Of a DNA stretch of 64,000 bases, positions 2,563 to 43,600 are shown one piece after another. The DNA lies in the sequence record MW882907; one strand, written 5' to 3'. Under the pieces are notes generated by a model. The model ran no database searches and was not told the origin of the DNA. It saw nothing but the letters and a program-made list of their open reading frames with translations. The first letter of the stretch is position 1. Every line of letters starts with the position of its first letter. The DNA comes from Escherichia phage vB_EcoM_SQ17. The position numbers and the translations under genes were made by a program.

Positions 2563-4131
2563 ATGACTACTATCAAAACTAAAGCTCAGCTCGTAGACAA
2601 ATGGAAAGAACTGCTGGAAGGTGAAGGCCTGCCGGAAATCGCTAATAGCAAGCAGGCTATTATCGCTAAAATCTTCGAAAACCAGGAAAAAGATTTCGAA
2701 GTATCCCCTGAATATAAAGACGAGAAAATCGCTCAGGCATTTGGTTCTTTCTTGACCGAAGCTGAAATTGGTGGTGACCACGGTTATAATGCTCAGAACA
2801 TCGCAGCAGGTCAAACCTCTGGTGCAGTAACCCAGATTGGGCCGGCAGTTATGGGTATGGTTCGTCGTGCTATTCCTAATCTGATCGCTTTCGATATTTG
2901 TGGTGTTCAGCCTATGAACAGCCCTACCGGTCAGGTATTTGCTCTCCGTGCAGTATATGGTAAAGACCCTATCGCTGCTGACGCTAAAGAAGCTTTCCAT
3001 CCGATGTATGCTCCAGACGCGATGTTCTCTGGTCAGGGTGCTGCTAAGAAATTCCCAGCTCTGGCTGCTAGCACACAAACCGTTGTAGGTGATATCTATA
3101 CTCACTTCTTCCAGGACACTGGTACTGTGTATCTACAAGCTTCCGCTGTAGTAACAATTGATGCTGGCGCTACCGATGCAACTAAATTAGATGCTGAAAT
3201 TAAGAAACAAATGGAAGCTGGTGCACTGGTAGAAATCGCTGAAGGTATGGCTACTTCTATCGCTGAACTTCAGGAAGGCTTCAATGGTTCTACCGACAAC
3301 CCGTGGAACGAAATGGGCTTCCGTATCGACAAACAAGTTATTGAAGCTAAATCTCGTCAGCTGAAAGCAGCTTACTCCATCGAATTGGCACAAGACCTCC
3401 GTGCAGTACACGGTATGGATGCTGATGCTGAACTGAGCGGTATTCTTGCTACTGAAATTATGCTGGAAATCAACCGTGAAGTTGTTGACTGGATTAACTA
3501 CTCCGCTCAGGTTGGTAAATCTGGTATGACTAATATCGTTGGTTCTAAAGCTGGTGTATTTGACTTCCAGGACCCGATTGATATCCGTGGTGCTCGTTGG
3601 GCCGGTGAAAGCTTTAAAGCTCTGTTGTTCCAGATTGATAAAGAAGCAGTTGAAATTGCTCGTCAAACCGGCCGTGGTGAAGGTAACTTCATTATCGCTT
3701 CCCGTAACGTAGTTAACGTACTGGCTTCAGTTGATACTGGTATTTCTTACGCTGCACAGGGTCTGGCTTCTGGTTTTAATACCGACACTACTAAATCTGT
3801 ATTTGCCGGTGTACTTGGTGGTAAATACCGCGTATACATCGACCAGTATGCTAAACAGGATTACTTCACCGTTGGTTACAAAGGTGCTAACGAAATGGAT
3901 GCAGGTATTTACTATGCTCCTTACGTTGCACTTACCCCACTGCGTGGTTCCGATCCTAAGAACTTCCAGCCGGTAATGGGCTTTAAAACTCGTTACGGTA
4001 TCGGTGTTAACCCGTTTGCTGAAAGTTCCCTGCAGGCTCCAGGTGCTCGCATCCAGTCCGGTATGCCGTCTATCCTGAACAGCCTTGGTAAGAACGCTTA
4101 CTTTAGACGCGTCTACGTTAAAGGAATTTAA
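2563..4131 (+). CDS. 23: Major capsid protein gp23
   Basis: 522 aa; N-terminal MTTIKTKAQLVDKWKELLEGEGLPEIANSKQAIIAKIFENQEKDF matches my recollection of T4 gp23. Confidence 0.97.
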   Translation: MTTIKTKAQLVDKWKELLEGEGLPEIANSKQAIIAKIFENQEKDFEVSPEYKDEKIAQAFGSFLTEAEIGGDHGYNAQNIAAGQTSGAVTQIGPAVMGMVRRAIPNLIAFDICGVQPMNSPTGQVFALRAVYGKDPIAADAKEAFHPMYAPDAMFSGQGAAKKFPALAASTQTVVGDIYTHFFQDTGTVYLQASAVVTIDAGATDATKLDAEIKKQMEAGALVEIAEGMATSIAELQEGFNGSTDNPWNEMGFRIDKQVIEAKSRQLKAAYSIELAQDLRAVHGMDADAELSGILATEIMLEINREVVDWINYSAQVGKSGMTNIVGSKAGVFDFQDPIDIRGARWAGESFKALLFQIDKEAVEIARQTGRGEGNFIIASRNVVNVLASVDTGISYAAQGLASGFNTDTTKSVFAGVLGGKYRVYIDQYAKQDYFTVGYKGANEMDAGIYYAPYVALTPLRGSDPKNFQPVMGFKTRYGIGVNPFAESSLQAPGARIQSGMPSILNSLGKNAYFRRVYVKGI

Positions 4132-4160
4132 TGCTTTAACGTTAAAATACATAACCTTAT

Positions 4161-4178
4161 GGGAGACTTCGGTCTCCC
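4161..4178. terminator. GC hairpin with UUCG loop downstream of gene 23 (gggagac-ttcg-gtctccc)
   Basis: Perfect 7-bp stem with tetraloop, followed by a T-rich run; sits between convergent genes. Confidence 0.7.
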
Positions 4179-4193
4179 ATTCTTGTTTCTATA

Positions 4194-4460
4194 CTATGCA
4201 ATCTTAACTCGGCGGTTGATGATATCACGGAAGTCAATACGATTTTCTTGGATTTTCAGCCAGTTACCAGATTTGTCTTTGGTATGGGTAGAATATTCAC
4301 CGTTCCACCAGAAGTCAGTTTCATAAGCCAGGGCTTCGTATTTCTTAACCAATGCATTAACTGCATTACCGTTAGGATTGGTACCAAATTTTTCTACCAG
4401 AGCTTTGATGTCTTTGTCAAGGTTAGAAAGTGTGGTACGGATAAAGTTTAATTTGTTCAT
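4194..4460 (-). CDS. Hypothetical 88-aa protein, antisense between genes 23 and 24
   Basis: ORF-track ORF trimmed to an internal ATG that has a GAGGAGA ribosome-binding site; early-promoter motif upstream. Confidence 0.5.
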   Translation of the reverse strand: MNKLNFIRTTLSNLDKDIKALVEKFGTNPNGNAVNALVKKYEALAYETDFWWNGEYSTHTKDKSGNWLKIQENRIDFRDIINRRVKIA

Positions 4461-4489
4461 TTTTAATCTCCTCATGTTTTGATAGGTCT

Positions 4490-4519
4490 ATAGTAACACA
4501 ACACTTTTTGTGTGTAAAC
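4490..4519 (-). promoter_or_regulatory. T4 early-type promoter (GTTTAC, about 18 nt, TACTAT) for the 88-aa ORF
   Basis: Minus strand reads GTTTACACACAAAAAGTGTTGTGTTACTATAG. Confidence 0.4.
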
Positions 4520-4525
4520 CACTTT

Positions 4526-4533
4526 TATAAATA
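4526..4533 (+). promoter_or_regulatory. T4 late promoter motif TATAAATA upstream of gene 24
   Basis: Exact TATAAATA about 30 nt upstream of the ATG; AAGGAAA ribosome-binding site follows. Confidence 0.6.
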
Positions 4534-4563
4534 AAATTATATTCTCAATAAGGAAAAAATGCA

Positions 4564-5847
4564 ATGAGTAAAATCCAAAAATTATTGCGTGAATCTACAA
4601 CGTCTATTAGCAACTCAATTGGTCGCCCAAATCTCGTTGCTTTGACTCGCGCTACGACTAAATTAATATATTCTGACATTGTAGCAACACAAAGAACTAA
4701 TCAACCTGTTGCTGCTTTTTATGGTATCAAATATCTTAACCCAGGCAATGAATTTACATTTAAAACTGGTGCTACTTATGCTGGCGAAGTTGGATATGTA
4801 GACCGAGAAAAAATTACTGAACTCACAGAAGAATCAAAAGTCACACTAAATAAAGGCGATTTTTTCAAATATAATAATATCGTCTATAAAGTGTTAGAAG
4901 ATACACCGTTTGCAGATATTCAAGAAAGTGATCTAGAATTAGCTCTTCAGATTGCGGTCGTTCATTTAAAGGTACGGTTATTTTCAGATGCAGCGGTAAC
5001 AAGCAAATTTGAAAGCTCTGATAGCGAAATTTCTGATGCAAGATTCCAGATTAATAAATGGCAAACTTCAGTCAAATCTCGTAAACTTAAAACCGGCCTC
5101 ACGGTTGAATTAGCGCAAGATTTGGAAGCGAATGGATTTGATGCCCCTAACTTCTTAGAAGATTTGCTTGCTACTGAAATGGCTGATGAAATTAATAAAG
5201 ATATTCTTCAGTCTTTAATTACTGTATCGAAACGTTATAAAGTTACTGGAATTACTGACACCGGATTTATTGACTTGAGCTATGCATCTGCTCCAGAAGC
5301 AGGTCGTTCATTATATCGAATGGTGTGTGAAATGGTATCACACATTCAAAAAGAGACAACTTATACTGCAACGTTTTGTGTAGCCTCAGCTCGTGCAGCT
5401 GCTATTCTTGCTGCTTCCGGTTGGTTAAAACATAAGCCAGAAGATGACAAGTATCTTTCACAAAATGCTTATGGATTCTTGGCAAATGGATTACCTCTTT
5501 ACTGCGATACCAACAGTCCGTTAGATTATGTTATTGTGGGTGTTGTAGAAAATATCGGCGAAAAAGAAATTGTAGGGTCCATCTTTTACGCTCCATACAC
5601 TGAAGGAGTAGATTTAGATGACCCGGAACATGTTGGTGCATTTAAAGTTGTAGTTGATCCAGAAAGCTTGCAACCGTCTATCGGATTATTGGTTAGATAT
5701 GCTTTATCAGCAAATCCTTACACAGTAGCAAAAGATGAAAAAGAAGCGAGAATAATTGATGGCGGGGACATGGATAAAATGGCAGGACGTTCAGACTTGT
5801 CTGTTTTACTCGGTGTTAAATTGCCAAAAATCATCGTTGATGAATAA
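4564..5847 (+). CDS. 24: Capsid vertex protein gp24
   Basis: 427 aa; close match to my recollection of T4 gp24 (paralogue of gp23). Confidence 0.95.
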   Translation: MSKIQKLLRESTTSISNSIGRPNLVALTRATTKLIYSDIVATQRTNQPVAAFYGIKYLNPGNEFTFKTGATYAGEVGYVDREKITELTEESKVTLNKGDFFKYNNIVYKVLEDTPFADIQESDLELALQIAVVHLKVRLFSDAAVTSKFESSDSEISDARFQINKWQTSVKSRKLKTGLTVELAQDLEANGFDAPNFLEDLLATEMADEINKDILQSLITVSKRYKVTGITDTGFIDLSYASAPEAGRSLYRMVCEMVSHIQKETTYTATFCVASARAAAILAASGWLKHKPEDDKYLSQNAYGFLANGLPLYCDTNSPLDYVIVGVVENIGEKEIVGSIFYAPYTEGVDLDDPEHVGAFKVVVDPESLQPSIGLLVRYALSANPYTVAKDEKEARIIDGGDMDKMAGRSDLSVLLGVKLPKIIVDE

Positions 5848-9344: not shown

Positions 9345-9357
9345 GGTATTTCCTCAT

Positions 9358-9365
9358 TATAAATA
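9358..9365 (+). promoter_or_regulatory. T4 late promoter motif TATAAATA upstream of uvsW
   Basis: Exact TATAAATA 30 nt upstream of the uvsW ATG. Confidence 0.6.
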
Positions 9366-9394
9366 TAACTATATTTATTACATGGTAATTTGAC

Positions 9395-25679: not shown

Positions 25680-25964
25680 CTACTTAACGAAATTAATTTC
25701 TACCGGATGAACAACAGGTTGAGCAGTGATATATTGAGTAATTGCTTTCAAGACTAGAGCTTCAGACCCAGGATTTTTCTCAACGAATTCACGTGCTTGG
25801 TTATGAGCTTCAAGTTCACTTAGTAAACCACTTCGTTGGCATCCACGGTCTTGAGTACCCTGTTCAGATAAAAAGACGACGATGTATTTTTCTTCATCGT
25901 CATACGGTTTAGACGGTTGAGCAAATGTTCCTTTACTTCCAAAAGGAGAGTTATGACGCCGCAC
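25680..25964 (-). CDS. Hypothetical ORF with no ATG start, overlapping the previous ORF by about 145 nt
   Basis: 94-aa protein-like ORF; ORF-track start is GTG with no ribosome-binding site; possible frameshifted continuation. Confidence 0.3.
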   Translation of the reverse strand: MRRHNSPFGSKGTFAQPSKPYDDEEKYIVVFLSEQGTQDRGCQRSGLLSELEAHNQAREFVEKNPGSEALVLKAITQYITAQPVVHPVEINFVK

Positions 25965-26296
25965 ACGCCGTGAGGAGTTTCAACCTTCGTATATTCGTGT
26001 GGACCATTTTTCTTAGTTTCTTGATGTGGAACTTCGTAGACCTTAGGGTTAGGACATTCAATAAAATGCTCATCTAAATCGGTCGAGAATATTAAAGTAA
26101 AACAATTACTAAATTTACCAACACCTGCCTGATAAATTTTACCTTCAGAAGTTCTAATTTCACAAACCGAGCCGGCATCAGTAACTTCTAAAACTTCAAA
26201 AGGCTCGATAAGGTCATATGAGAACATGTTTTTAAGGCGTGGAGTAATATCCCCATTTTTAAAATTCATTTTATAAAAAGTATTAACTTTAAACAT
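25820..26296 (-). CDS. Hypothetical protein; 3' part overlaps the next ORF in another frame
   Basis: 158-aa ORF; good upstream context (hairpin, then GAGGAAATT ATG). Confidence 0.45.
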   Translation of the reverse strand: MFKVNTFYKMNFKNGDITPRLKNMFSYDLIEPFEVLEVTDAGSVCEIRTSEGKIYQAGVGKFSNCFTLIFSTDLDEHFIECPNPKVYEVPHQETKKNGPHEYTKVETPHGVCGVITLLLEVKEHLLNRLNRMTMKKNTSSSFYLNRVLKTVDANEVVY

Positions 26297-28347: not shown

Positions 28348-28918
28348 AAAAGTTTCGGATTTGTTCCCAATTCAGAGAACGAAGATTATTACGAGAGTAC
28401 TGAATTACTTCAATACCGGCTTGTTTTAGAATGTCTGCCCAATTTTCAGGAGATCGATCGTATAATTCTGCGTATACAACCTTTTTAATACCTGACTGAG
28501 TAATAGCTTTAGTGCAATCAGGACATGGAGAAAGCGTCGTATATAACGTAGCACCTTCAATAGAATTACCTTTACGAGCTGCAAACAAAATTGCATTCAA
28601 TTCTGCATGGATTTCATTATTAGCAGACCATGCACTATGAGCGGCCCGATGTTCTTTAGCCAAAACAAAATTATCTGCCCGTCCAAATGCTGTAGTGCCT
28701 TCTTTATGTCCAGCAACGATGACCGGGCTTGGTTTATTCTTCAACCAACCATTTTCGGATGCATGTTCACAACAGTTAACGCCACCTGCTGGTGAGCCAT
28801 TATATCCAGTAGAGATAATGCGTCCATCTTTTTCAATGACGGCACCAACTTTCCATGAACAACATTTTGATTCTTGAGAAATCAGATATGCAATCTGAAG
28901 GTATGTGCTAGCTTTCAT
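28337..28918 (-). CDS. cd: dCMP deaminase
   Basis: 193 aa; zinc-binding HAELNAI and PCxxC motifs. Confidence 0.9.
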   Translation of the reverse strand: MKASTYLQIAYLISQESKCCSWKVGAVIEKDGRIISTGYNGSPAGGVNCCEHASENGWLKNKPSPVIVAGHKEGTTAFGRADNFVLAKEHRAAHSAWSANNEIHAELNAILFAARKGNSIEGATLYTTLSPCPDCTKAITQSGIKKVVYAELYDRSPENWADILKQAGIEVIQYSRNNLRSLNWEQIRNFCGE

Positions 28919-29910
28919 TATTGAACCTTATTAATATAAGTTAACAGCTCTTTAGTTTGTTCCCAACTGATGCACGCATCGGTAACGGAAACGCCATAGG
29001 ACATATTATCAGAAATTTTTTGATTTCCTTCATGTAGGAATGATTCTATCATAATTCCTTTGACCAAATCATTAGCTGCTAAATTTTTACCAATACCAAT
29101 TTGATTGCTATAATACCCATCAGCGTTTGCATGGCTACAGTCAACCATTACATAATGATTCAGACCTACTGCCCTTGCTTTGTTAGAAGCTTCTTGAATA
29201 TCAGAAGAATGATAGTTCGGGCCGTTAGTCCCGCCACGCAATACGATATGCGTATTCTGATTACCTTCAGCTTCAACAATGCCTACAGTACCATCGACGT
29301 CCATACCCATATACCGATGAGGCCAGGCGGCACTATACATCGCGTCTGTAGCTACTTTAATAGAACCATTGGTTGCGTTCTTGAAGCCTACGCACATCGG
29401 TAGACCTGAAGCAATTTCACGATGTGTCTGACTTTCAGTCGTACGGGCGCCAATAGCAACCCATGAGAAAATACCAGAAAGATACTTAATCGTGAATGGG
29501 TCTAATACTTCAGTTGCTAATGGAAGTCCCATACGTAGAAGTTTACGACACAATGTTCGTGCAACTATAAGACCGTGGTTCATATCAAAACTTCCGTCAA
29601 GATATGGATCATTTACAAGACCTTTCCAACCTACGGTAGTTCGAGGCTTTTCAAAATAAACGCGCATCACTAACAGAACATTAGGAAGATGAGTTTGAAG
29701 TTCAGCCAGACGTTTGCCGTATTCAACAGCAGCAATAGGGTCATGAATTGAACAAGGACCTACAACAATAAGTTTGCGTGGGTCTTCACCATTCATAATC
29801 GAATTAACTTGTTCGCGATGAGAAGCCACTTGTGATGCGTAAGCTTCCGACAAAGGAATAATCTCAGCCAGTTCTTTTGGAGAAATAAGTTTTCTGATGA
29901 CAGGTAACAT
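28918..29910 (-). CDS. 3-deoxy-D-arabino-heptulosonate 7-phosphate (DAHP) synthase, class I AroG/AroF/AroH type
   Basis: 330 aa; LIVVGPCSIHD, VYFEKPRTTVGWKGL, AIGARTTESQ(T)HRE, SHAN, ESFLHEGNQ and SVTDACI motifs are all present. Confidence 0.85.
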   Translation of the reverse strand: MLPVIRKLISPKELAEIIPLSEAYASQVASHREQVNSIMNGEDPRKLIVVGPCSIHDPIAAVEYGKRLAELQTHLPNVLLVMRVYFEKPRTTVGWKGLVNDPYLDGSFDMNHGLIVARTLCRKLLRMGLPLATEVLDPFTIKYLSGIFSWVAIGARTTESQTHREIASGLPMCVGFKNATNGSIKVATDAMYSAAWPHRYMGMDVDGTVGIVEAEGNQNTHIVLRGGTNGPNYHSSDIQEASNKARAVGLNHYVMVDCSHANADGYYSNQIGIGKNLAANDLVKGIMIESFLHEGNQKISDNMSYGVSVTDACISWEQTKELLTYINKVQ

Positions 29911-35476: not shown

Positions 35477-36652
35477 TTAGAAATATTTTTTGTATGAATT
35501 GATTACATTTTGGTCTACATCATTATCAATTTGTGCAACAAGATAAGAACTGATTTCAACTTCCTGAGGAGCTGCTTGAACTAAATCAGAGTTCAGATAT
35601 TCACGAATCCAAGGATACGGATGCTTGGTCGGAGCATCAGTGATTGGGCATGGCAAACCACACTGTTTCATACGAGACACAGTCAAGTAATCAACAAAAG
35701 CACACATACTCTGCGTATTGATACCTGGGCATGTACCGTCTTTAAAGAGATGTGCAGCCCATTCCTTCTCTTGTCTATTTACTTCCATAAAAATGTCAAC
35801 TGCTTCTTGTTCGCATTCTTTAGCAATTTGAACCCACTCATCGCCATCAGTACCAGATTGAAGTTGACGGATAATGTACTGAGTACCCTTGAGATGGAGT
35901 TGTTCGTCACGAGCAATGAACTTCATAATCTTTGCATTGCCTTCCATAATTTCCATATTTTTATGGAAGTTGAAAGTACATGCAAATGATACGTAAAAAC
36001 GGATAGCTTCTAAGGCGTTGATAACATGCAAACAGAGATAAAGAGACTTCATTAAATCACGCTTGGCGTTAAACATTATTTCTTCGTACATCTCAATATC
36101 ATTCTGCTGGCATGAGCCTATTGAACACTCATAATCTTCCTTAGCATTTTCCCAATTACGAGTCTTGACTAGAACATCATCGTAATATTTACCTATTGAT
36201 TCAGCTCGTTTCATGATTGCTTCGTCTAATACAATTTCATCAAATACCTTAGATGGGTCTGTATAAAGATTTCGCATAATATGAGTATACGAACGAGAGT
36301 GAATAGTTTCACTGAATGTCCATGTTGCAACCCACGTATCTAATGAAGGGTCAGAAATCAGTGCCATAAGTACCGCAGATGGGGCCCTGCCTTGGATAGA
36401 ATCTAATAATGATTGATACTTAAGATTGTTTGTAAAGATGTCCTGTTGGAACTGAGGAAGCTTATTGAACTGTGCAGAGTCCAACATCAAGTTTACCTCT
36501 TCGGGGCGCCAGAAAAATGATAATTGCTTTTCGGTTAAATCTTCAAAAACTTTATGGCGTTGAATATCATAACGCGCAATACCAAGACCTGAACCGAAGA
36601 ACATTGGTTCATTCAAAACATCGACTTGTTGTGTGTTAAAAACTGTACTCAT
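35477..36652 (-). CDS. nrdB: Ribonucleotide reductase small subunit, uninterrupted (no intron)
   Basis: 391-aa continuous ORF with ferritin-like R2 features. Confidence 0.9.
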   Translation of the reverse strand: MSTVFNTQQVDVLNEPMFFGSGLGIARYDIQRHKVFEDLTEKQLSFFWRPEEVNLMLDSAQFNKLPQFQQDIFTNNLKYQSLLDSIQGRAPSAVLMALISDPSLDTWVATWTFSETIHSRSYTHIMRNLYTDPSKVFDEIVLDEAIMKRAESIGKYYDDVLVKTRNWENAKEDYECSIGSCQQNDIEMYEEIMFNAKRDLMKSLYLCLHVINALEAIRFYVSFACTFNFHKNMEIMEGNAKIMKFIARDEQLHLKGTQYIIRQLQSGTDGDEWVQIAKECEQEAVDIFMEVNRQEKEWAAHLFKDGTCPGINTQSMCAFVDYLTVSRMKQCGLPCPITDAPTKHPYPWIREYLNSDLVQAAPQEVEISSYLVAQIDNDVDQNVINSYKKYF

Positions 36653-36705
36653 TATATTTTCTCACTTAGTTTAACTCATCCATGAGTAAATTATAATCAA
36701 AAGTC

Positions 36706-39304: not shown

Positions 39305-39616
39305 TTATACCGCCATTTTAGCTTTGATAGCTGGATGTGATTCGTAATTTTTAAGAATAAAGTCTTTAGGACGAAGTTTTAATACATATTCGATTTGTTC
39401 TTCGGTTGATAGATGTCTAAATTTGTATGGTAATCCGTTAATAACTAATTCACACAGTTCTTTAGGCTCACGACGAAGAACTTCTTTGCATTGTTCTACA
39501 TGATTGCTGTAGATATGCGTGTTGCCGCCTGAGAACACTAAATCACCTGGGATAAGGTTACACATCTTCGCTACAATATGCGTCAAGGCAGCGTACGAGG
39601 CAATGTTGAACGGCAG
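39305..39616 (-). CDS. td: Thymidylate synthase, exon 2 (C-terminal 103 aa)
   Basis: Translation LPFNIASYAALTHIVAKM...GGNTHIYSNH is the thymidylate synthase C-terminus; joins to exon 1 ending ...VDVFLG. Confidence 0.85.
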   Translation of the reverse strand: MPFNIASYAALTHIVAKMCNLIPGDLVFSGGNTHIYSNHVEQCKEVLRREPKELCELVINGLPYKFRHLSTEEQIEYVLKLRPKDFILKNYESHPAIKAKMAV

Positions 39617-40632
39617 CATTATGTTCAGATAAGGTCGTTAATCTTATCCCGGAATTATATCCAGCTGCATGTCACCATGCAGAGCAGACTATATCTCCAA
39701 CTTGTTAAAGCAAGTTGTCTATCGTTTCGAGTCACTTGACCCTACTCCCTAAAGGGATAGTCGTTAGGCATTTATGTAGAACCAATTCCACTTATCAGAT
39801 TTTACACGGTAAGTAACTAATCCTGATGAAATTTCAAAATGTCTAGCCGCATCGGCTGCACATTCAAAAATAATCCCATCGCATGAAATCTTTTTGATGT
39901 TAGCTGGCTTTTTGCCTTTCATCTTTTCAGATAGTTTAGTTTTAGTTTTTTCTGAATGTTTGTGATTAAAGAACGGGTTATTTTCACCTGAACGTTTTCG
40001 GCACTTTCCACAAGTATCGGCCGAAGATGGTATGCGAACACCGCATTTACAAAACTTGTGGTTTTCTGGATTCCATCGGCCATTTTTACTTCCGTGTTTA
40101 CCATAAAGAGCTTTCCGACCATCAGGACCAAGCTTAAGCATCTTAGCTTTAACAGTTTCAGCTCGTTTCTTAGCAATTTCTTCTTTTAATGGATGATTTG
40201 AAAGCACATCGCCAAAAGACGCATCAGCAATATTATATCCATTAATTTTAGAATTTAGCTCTTTAATCCAAAAATTTTCTCGTTCAATAATCAAATCTTT
40301 CTCATATGGAATTTCTTCCAGTACAGAGCATTCAAAAACATTACCATGTTTATTAAAAGACCTTTGAAATTTTATAGAAGAGTGAACACCGTTTTCAAGG
40401 TCTTTAAAATGTCTCTTCCATCTTTTCTCAAAATCTTTAGCACTTCCAACATACACTTTACCGTTTAAAGTGTTTTTAATCTGATAAATTCCGCTTTTCA
40501 TAAACACCTCTTTTTATATAGAAGTATTTATTAAAGGGTAGTCCTACAATTTAGCACGGGATTGTCTACTAGAGAGGTCCCCCGTTTAGATAGATTACAA
40601 GTATAAGTCACCTTATACTTAGGCCTAAATTA
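39617..40632 (-). mobile_element. Group I self-splicing intron in td (1016 nt) carrying the I-TevI gene
   Basis: Interrupts td between ...VDVFLG and LPFNIAS...; intron starts TAATT and ends ...ATG; 1016 nt, the T4 td intron length as I recall it. Confidence 0.85.
39764..40501 (-). CDS. I-TevI GIY-YIG homing endonuclease (intron-encoded)
   Basis: 245 aa from the ATG (ORF-track start is an upstream GTG); MKSGIYQIKNTLNGKVYVGSAKDFEKRWKRH GIY-YIG motif. Confidence 0.9.
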   Translation of the reverse strand: MKSGIYQIKNTLNGKVYVGSAKDFEKRWKRHFKDLENGVHSSIKFQRSFNKHGNVFECSVLEEIPYEKDLIIERENFWIKELNSKINGYNIADASFGDVLSNHPLKEEIAKKRAETVKAKMLKLGPDGRKALYGKHGSKNGRWNPENHKFCKCGVRIPSSADTCGKCRKRSGENNPFFNHKHSEKTKTKLSEKMKGKKPANIKKISCDGIIFECAADAARHFEISSGLVTYRVKSDKWNWFYINA

Positions 40633-42031
<1,399 letters not shown>

Positions 42032-43486: not shown

Positions 43487-43600
43487 TTTATTTGCCTTTA
43501 TTTAGATTAATTAAATTTTACAGTTGGTTGCTACGACACTTATACCTCGTAGCTGGTATGATTTATTTATAAAGTAATTTTAACACACAAGAAATAAAGC

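Follow-up and report, generated by a model that had tools for sequence, protein, structure and literature searches.

Our analysis of a 64-kb stretch of DNA (64,000 nucleotides of record MW882907, Escherichia phage vB_EcoM_SQ17), hereafter called the window, points to a classical mobile group I td intron with an intact I-TevI gene in its P6 loop, residing in the genome of a Mosigvirus phage, a reading to which we assign a probability of about 0.93 on the basis of the sequence comparisons presented below. Alignment to T4 placed the window as collinear with ~102.4-168.9 kb of the T4 genome, from gene 20 to rIIB, at nucleotide identities of 67-85% across the collinear alignment. The nearest relatives of the window, AV116, ATK47, LF82-4 and NRG-P0074, are 97-98% identical to it and lie in or adjoin the RB69-like genus Mosigvirus; no record identical to the window was present in the phage collection. 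By these similarities the host phage of the intron is classified as an RB69-like (Mosigvirus) coliphage, and T4 belongs to a different genus, its td exons being only 75-78% identical to those of the window.

The interrupted td gene and its group I intron

The thymidylate synthase gene td lies on the minus strand of the window and is composed of exon 1 (549 nt, 40633..41181), an intron of 1016 nt (39617..40632) and exon 2 (312 nt with its stop codon, 39305..39616). The exons were identified from the sequence and from comparison with intronless alleles, and the intron by its likeness to that of T4 and by its helices P1-P9.2. In minus-strand reading, ...TTCTTAGGT closes exon 1 at 40633, TAATTTAGGCC opens the intron at 40632, ...ACATAATG closes it at 39617, and exon 2 opens with CTGCCG at 39616; the last U of exon 1 (...AGGU) is the U of the U.G pair at the 5' splice site. 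Exon 1 shares 97% identity with the intronless td of Mosigvirus AV117 and 78% with T4. When the exons are joined at the predicted junctions, an 861-nt td open reading frame of 286 aa is restored, which covers the Pfam profile Thymidylat_synt over its whole length (1-266/266) and lines up gap-free with the intronless td genes of Mosigvirus. The original prediction that td is split by a 1016-nt insertion, with junctions where thymidylate synthase homology breaks, was thus exact in its coordinates, and the joined exons encode a full-length enzyme.

The insertion had also been proposed to be homologous to the I-TevI-bearing td intron of T4, and this was borne out by an overall identity of 90.2%. 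With BLAST E-values of 0, none of the features checked is a chance match. The ribozyme parts are the more conserved, with 94% identity in the 5' part and 98.6% in the 3' part downstream of the stop codon vs 88% in the open reading frame; out of 100 nucleotide differences between the two introns, 90 fall in the latter. The T4 intron (NC_000866, 143548-144563; 1017 nt by the boundaries used for the window) occupies the same insertion site of the same gene, has the same helices P1-P9.2 and likewise holds its reading frame in the P6 loop, with the 3' end of the frame forming the 3' strand of P6.

The 5' ribozyme part of the window intron (40541..40632, minus strand) contains the internal guide sequence GCCUAA of P1, P2, the 5' strand of P3, P4, P5 and the 5' strand of P6, and the 3' ribozyme part (39617..39790, minus strand) contains the 3' strand of P6, P7, P7.1, P7.2, the 3' strand of P3, P8, P9, P9.1, P9.2 and the terminal G. 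All 74 pairs of the 13 helices P1-P9.2, including the P3/P7 pseudoknot, can form in the window intron. The pairs were followed through an ORF-trimmed core alignment of nine td introns (window, T4, VEc20, Melville, HP3, e11/2, EI, SEA1 and BYEP01), five of which (HP3, e11/2, EI, SEA1 and BYEP01) are naturally truncated or ORF-less. In this alignment 99.1% of the cells were paired vs 31-44% when the partners were slid by 1-3 columns, for a structure that was itself drawn from those same sequences; compensatory changes were seen in four pairs, located in P6, P8 and P9.2, and covariation support is thin, since most helix pairs are invariant among the nine introns. The U.G pair at the 5' splice site (columns 10-19) is present in 9/9 introns, and the window intron ends in ...AAUG with the terminal G. 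RNAalifold independently recovered the helices other than P7 (P7 crosses P3), with P1 found in part only.

A search of the whole window with Rfam at the gathering threshold returned no match. The Intron_gpI model (RF00028) matched only the 3' half, on 39665..39895, with 36.2 bits (E = 3e-7) against a gathering score of 50, because the model is disrupted by the 738-nt reading frame lodged in the P6 loop. For td introns that naturally lack the frame, whose closely similar cores have a mean column identity of 95%, RF00028 scores are 63.8-70.3 bits. On its homology and helices, the insertion is assigned to the group I introns, subgroup IA2, of the T4 td type. By analogy with T4, the window td transcript would self-splice as RNA, and td would stay functional.

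P1 is formed by exon UUAGGU and intron GCCUAA and is Watson-Crick throughout except for the U.G pair at the splice site; the corresponding elements of T4 are exon UUGGGU and guide GCCUGA. At nt 14 of the window intron (40619), within the guide sequence, G has been replaced by A, a change private to the window that turns a U.G pair of P1 into U-A and is the sole intron difference from NRG-P0074 and VEc20. The exon base at -4 is A, in a synonymous TTA leucine codon, and fits the A at guide position 14.

Intron nt 6 (window 40627) and the third nucleotide of exon 2 (39614, in the first codon CTN for leucine) were observed to be pairable in 7/9 td introns, in the varying combinations U/G, U/A, A/U and G/U, the exceptions being T4 and e11/2. 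Such a pairing might, tentatively, lengthen a possible P10 formed by exon 2 CU and intron AG.

Further downstream, codons ~236-270 of exon 2 (window ~39330..39440) specify a C-terminal part of thymidylate synthase that exists as two very different cassettes. The form ELVINGLPYKFRHLSTEEQIEYVLKLRPKDF, which is T4-like, is found in the window, HX01 and ESh15, and the form SLEINWPSNFENWPTKIQMDWVTGTMTHSDF is found in NRG-P0074, AV110, G2285, AV117, SA79RD, PhAPEC2 and TuIa, with a related form in e11/2. The cassettes show no dependence on the presence of the intron, and each form is found in both genera. A T4-like C-terminal segment that had hitch-hiked with the intron was considered and rejected, both cassettes occurring with and without it.

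The I-TevI gene and its target site

The endonuclease I-TevI, which is used in genome-editing fusions, is specified in the window by a gene of 245 aa plus stop codon in the P6 loop (39764..40501, minus strand), recognised by Pfam and PDB matches. As had been predicted, the insertion encodes a GIY-YIG I-TevI homologue of 245 aa; the frame is intact and has the same length and four-domain layout as T4 I-TevI, comprising GIY-YIG (PF01541, 1.4e-16), I-TevI_ZnF (PF22635, 1.8e-17), NUMOD3 (PF07460) and I-TevI_DNA-bd (PF20987, 1.9e-31). The protein shares 89% identity with T4 I-TevI, differing by 27 amino-acid substitutions that lie mostly in the linker and the DNA-binding domain, and equals the VEc20 protein at 100% identity. 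Residues Y6, Y17, R27, E75 and N90 are kept between the two proteins, and the alignment with T4 also shows conservation of the zinc-finger cysteines C151, C153, C164 and C167. Among PDB entries, 1I3J matched over the DNA-binding residues 130-245 (5.3e-66) and 1MK0/1LN0 matched the catalytic domain (~3e-57). Comparison of the window and T4 genes gave a dN/dS of 0.125 for the gene and of 0.07 for its catalytic domain, values by which the gene is judged to be under purifying selection. Endonuclease activity and homing of the window I-TevI would be expected by analogy with its T4 counterpart.

Regulatory elements known from T4 are present as well. A 12-bp hairpin (40500..40531, minus strand; -16.2 kcal/mol, z = -4.2) is predicted to sequester the GAGG ribosome-binding site and start codon of I-TevI, with a fold equal to that of the T4 sequence, and a late-promoter-like box, AATAAATA, conserved with T4, overlaps the hairpin at 40525..40532 (minus strand). 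In T4 the hairpin delays I-TevI translation, and the roles of the hairpin and the late-promoter-like box have been described (PMC2988022).

Cleavage by I-TevI falls upstream of the insertion site, at 23 and 25 nt, and requires a CNNNG motif with the proper spacing (PMC2988022). Exon 1 of the window contains CAACGC at 40654..40659 (minus strand), of which CAACG, at -27 to -23 from the insertion site, fits CNNNG in both motif and spacing. T4 has CAACG at the same position, as have four intronless Mosigvirus td alleles. The intronless allele of AV117 has CAGAGA in place of CAACGC, which still conforms to CNNNG, alongside several synonymous changes close by and a GGT|TTG junction; the susceptibility of this variant to I-TevI might be altered. 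The comparison with AV117 had raised the option that the CAACGC patch is a T4-derived conversion tract, which was rejected, the patch being native in four other intronless Mosigviruses and AV117 being the odd one.

The course of events proposed here carries splicing, cleavage and homing over from T4 to an element whose homology, helices, intact gene under purifying selection, restored td frame and population signatures are seen in the sequences. The td RNA would self-splice, with guanosine attacking the U.G pair of P1, and td would remain functional. I-TevI would be made late, its ribosome-binding site being locked in the hairpin in early transcripts. In a mixed infection the enzyme would bind an intronless td across the insertion site and cut 23 and 25 nt upstream of it, at CAACG. 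Repair from the intron-bearing genome would then copy the intron, along with short flanking exon tracts, into the recipient.

Distribution of the intron and its proposed exchange between genera

The td intron was found in ~20 of ~141 Mosigvirus-like records (~14%). The ~20 Mosigvirus genomes in GenBank that carry the window's variant (e.g., NRG-P0074, AV110, G2469 and 348Ecol098PP) have its endonuclease annotated as a homing endonuclease or I-TevI. The td intron of TuIa (AY262157) is the same variant with two nucleotide differences, set in Mosigvirus-type exons. The window is unlike the TuIa, NRG-P0074 and AV110 copies in its private G-to-A change at nt 14 and in its alternative C-terminal cassette of exon 2. 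A review lists AY262157 among its references under Sandegren & Sjoberg 2004, J Biol Chem 279:22218. The finding of a td intron of this kind is hence already known, the variant having been deposited for TuIa in 2004 and annotated in many GenBank genomes. TuIa hairpin variants were already shown in a 2010 review, and as early as 1987-1989 introns were found to be inconsistently distributed among T-even phages (see the references of PMC2988022). For T4 relatives, an uneven occurrence of both introns and homing endonucleases has been on record since the late 1980s.

The population data bear directly on how the intron came to its present hosts. Over 1016 nt, the window intron differs from those of NRG-P0074, VEc20, AV110 and TuIa by 1-3 nt. 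VEc20 is a Tequatrovirus, and its intron differs from that of the window at 1 nt although the td exons of the two phages are only 77-78% identical; downstream of the intron, VEc20 has Mosigvirus-like sequence for ~47 nt, followed by T4-like sequence. The reciprocal arrangement was detected in Mosigvirus G2285, which carries a T4-type intron with three differences from T4 and T4-like exon tracts of ~49 nt upstream and ~47 nt downstream. The intron of Lv5cm is a mosaic, of the window type over nt 1-505 and again from ~nt 760 and of the T4 type between. Synonymous divergence (dS) between the window and T4 is 0.51 for I-TevI vs ~3.2 (saturated) for the td exons. Near-identical introns in diverged phages indicate, at the level of sequence comparison, recent homing across genera: the difference of a single nucleotide in the intron beside exons of 77-78% identity, the short tracts and the sparse distribution agree with homing, accompanied by short co-conversion, in co-infections by phages of different genera, and not with vertical descent.

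Inheritance of the intron from a T4-like/RB69-like ancestor, followed by its loss from most Mosigviruses, is in our view very unlikely. The window intron is 10% diverged from that of T4 and so is no very recent copy of the T4 allele, and the exons flanking it are Mosigvirus-like apart from TTAGGT vs TTGGGC at the junction, both of which would suit such descent. Against it, synonymous sites of I-TevI have diverged from T4 by 0.51 where those of the td exons are saturated at ~3.2, the VEc20 copy departs from that of the window by 1 nt despite exons of 77-78% identity, recombinant introns exist (Lv5cm), and the intron occurs in only ~14% of Mosigvirus-like records, RB69 being without any (PMC2993671); the incongruence between introns and host genomes likewise counts against it. 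An element that still splices but is no longer mobile, its endonuclease having become inactive like T4 I-TevIII, is less probable still. Degenerate td introns with truncated or deleted reading frames are common (e11/2, HP3, BYEP01, SEA1 and EI), and the 27 amino-acid substitutions relative to T4 I-TevI could be taken as decay; the window frame is, however, full length at 245 aa with all catalytic and zinc-binding residues present, its dN/dS is 0.125 (0.07 in the catalytic domain), and near-identical introns with flanking conversion tracts occur in diverged backgrounds.

The least credible of the explanations, with hardly any weight in our assessment, is that a Mosigvirus assembly took in T4-like reads. 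Phage lysates are sometimes mixed, but nothing specific speaks for such an artefact here. The identical arrangement is found in ~20 independent Mosigvirus genomes and in the TuIa td sequence of 2004, the window intron is not of the T4 type, the exons are Mosigvirus-like up to both junctions, and exon base -4 and the guide sequence match each other in P1. A mobile td intron with an intact I-TevI gene is our preferred reading of the insertion.

A more tentative proposal, which we hold at slightly below even odds, is that the TuIa-type td intron and its I-TevI have been exchanged between Mosigvirus and Tequatrovirus in both directions, across exons of ~77% identity and with tracts of <50 nt, and that the target preference of the variant I-TevI, with its 27 substitutions, might in addition have moved towards the Mosigvirus td sequence. 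The direction of the inter-genus transfers is not certain because the 'Mosigvirus-like' exon 2 tract is found in some Tequatroviruses (e11/2) as well. A 2010 review saw no convincing evidence of intron-endonuclease movement between T4-related phage types (PMC2993671). The exchange of introns between the RB69 type and the T-even type, for which the sequences described above provide clear evidence, is one small point beyond the reviews of that year. In the literature collection that was searched, no paper came up that treats the td intron of Mosigvirus or this exchange, which is weak evidence of novelty.

The phage collection holds 198 full-length td introns. In addition, td introns of 250-445 nt with a truncated or deleted endonuclease frame were observed in many T4-related phages of several genera (Tequatrovirus, Gelderlandvirus and Marfavirus); together they represent several stages in the life cycle of a homing endonuclease at a single site.

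Mobile nuclease elements of the window region

T4 has six mobile nuclease elements in the region that corresponds to the window, and the window, which makes up ~38% of a genome of this size and to whose region alone these counts apply, has 1/6, the td intron with I-TevI. The collinear alignment to T4 showed the absence of the nrdB intron with I-TevIII, nrdB.1/mobE, segD, segE and segG. Where segD, segE, I-TevIII, mobE and segG sit in T4, the window has short spacers or an unrelated small gene. When 12 T4 seg, mob and I-Tev proteins were compared by phmmer with the 947 six-frame open reading frames of the window, only the I-TevI frame was retrieved, the others having E > 0.01, and Pfam and PHROGs revealed no nuclease-like domains in those window frames that have no T4 counterpart.

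The uninterrupted nrdB gene (391 aa, 35477..36652, minus strand) carries the Ribonuc_red_sm domain and is, as anticipated, one continuous frame, the alignment jumping exactly over the nrdB intron of T4 (138458-139057); the empty site of this I-TevIII intron is at ~35980/35981 in the window. Between nrdB and nrdA, the T4 site of nrdB.1 and mobE is a 53-bp spacer (36653..36705) by T4 alignment and phmmer. Gene 23 ends at 4131 and gene 24 starts at 4564, leaving an interval of 432 bp (4132..4563) in which segD is absent and the only gene is a conserved 88-aa frame in antisense orientation (4194..4460, minus strand; PHROG 6003) with a strong GAGGAG ribosome-binding site. The T4 site of segE, between inh and uvsW, is a 50-bp spacer (9345..9394) by T4 alignment, and that of segG, between genes 32 and 59, is a 114-bp spacer (43487..43600) by T4 alignment and phmmer. 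The expected lack of segD, with only the 88-aa antisense frame in its place, and the 50-bp gap instead of segE were both found precisely so. The broader claim that the phage had sampled a different subset of mobile elements from that of T4 holds as far as the absences are concerned; it needs refinement in that the set in this region is a strict subset of that of T4, mobE and segG being missing too.

The 88-aa frame was examined as a possible remnant of SegD and rejected as such, since it is unrelated to SegD (BLASTP E = 0.49), belongs to the conserved PHROG 6003 family and coexists with a segD-like gene in JK45. In this phage, which is 97.5% identical, a segD-like gene of 219 aa with a weak GIY-YIG match is located at 4195..4854, between gene 23 and the 88-aa frame. 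The site is empty at ~4190 in the window and filled in JK45; the segD-like insertion is therefore polymorphic among close relatives.

Differences from T4 in the window extend to genes other than mobile nucleases. The largest extra gene compared with T4 encodes a DAHP synthase of 330 aa (28918..29910, minus strand; Pfam DAHP_synth_1, 7.7e-75), adjoins cd at the position of T4 cd.1 and is also present in LF82-4 and other close relatives, being annotated in related Mosigvirus records; it is an auxiliary metabolic gene and not a mobile nuclease. A gene of PHROG 17531 (25680..26296, minus strand), which encodes 204 aa in LF82-4, is represented in the window by overlapping frames of 158 aa and 94 aa. 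The split is due to a 1-nt deletion near 25960 and points to a pseudogene or else to a sequencing error.

T4 is an outlier with 15 endonuclease genes, most of its relatives having few (PMC2988022), and RB69 has been reported to be without homing endonuclease genes (PMC2993671). Given that the RB69-like lineage is reported as endonuclease-free, the absences in the window are the normal state of the lineage and the td intron an exceptional gain. The missing seg and mob genes and nrdB intron are thus the usual state of an endonuclease-poor lineage.

The presence of the td intron matters little beyond correct annotation, in which td should be entered as two exons separated by an intron that encodes I-TevI. 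A by-product of the analysis is a natural data set comprising two intron haplotypes, each occurring in two genera, along with recombinants and short conversion tracts, which is usable for the study of homing with limited exon homology and of natural I-TevI variation.
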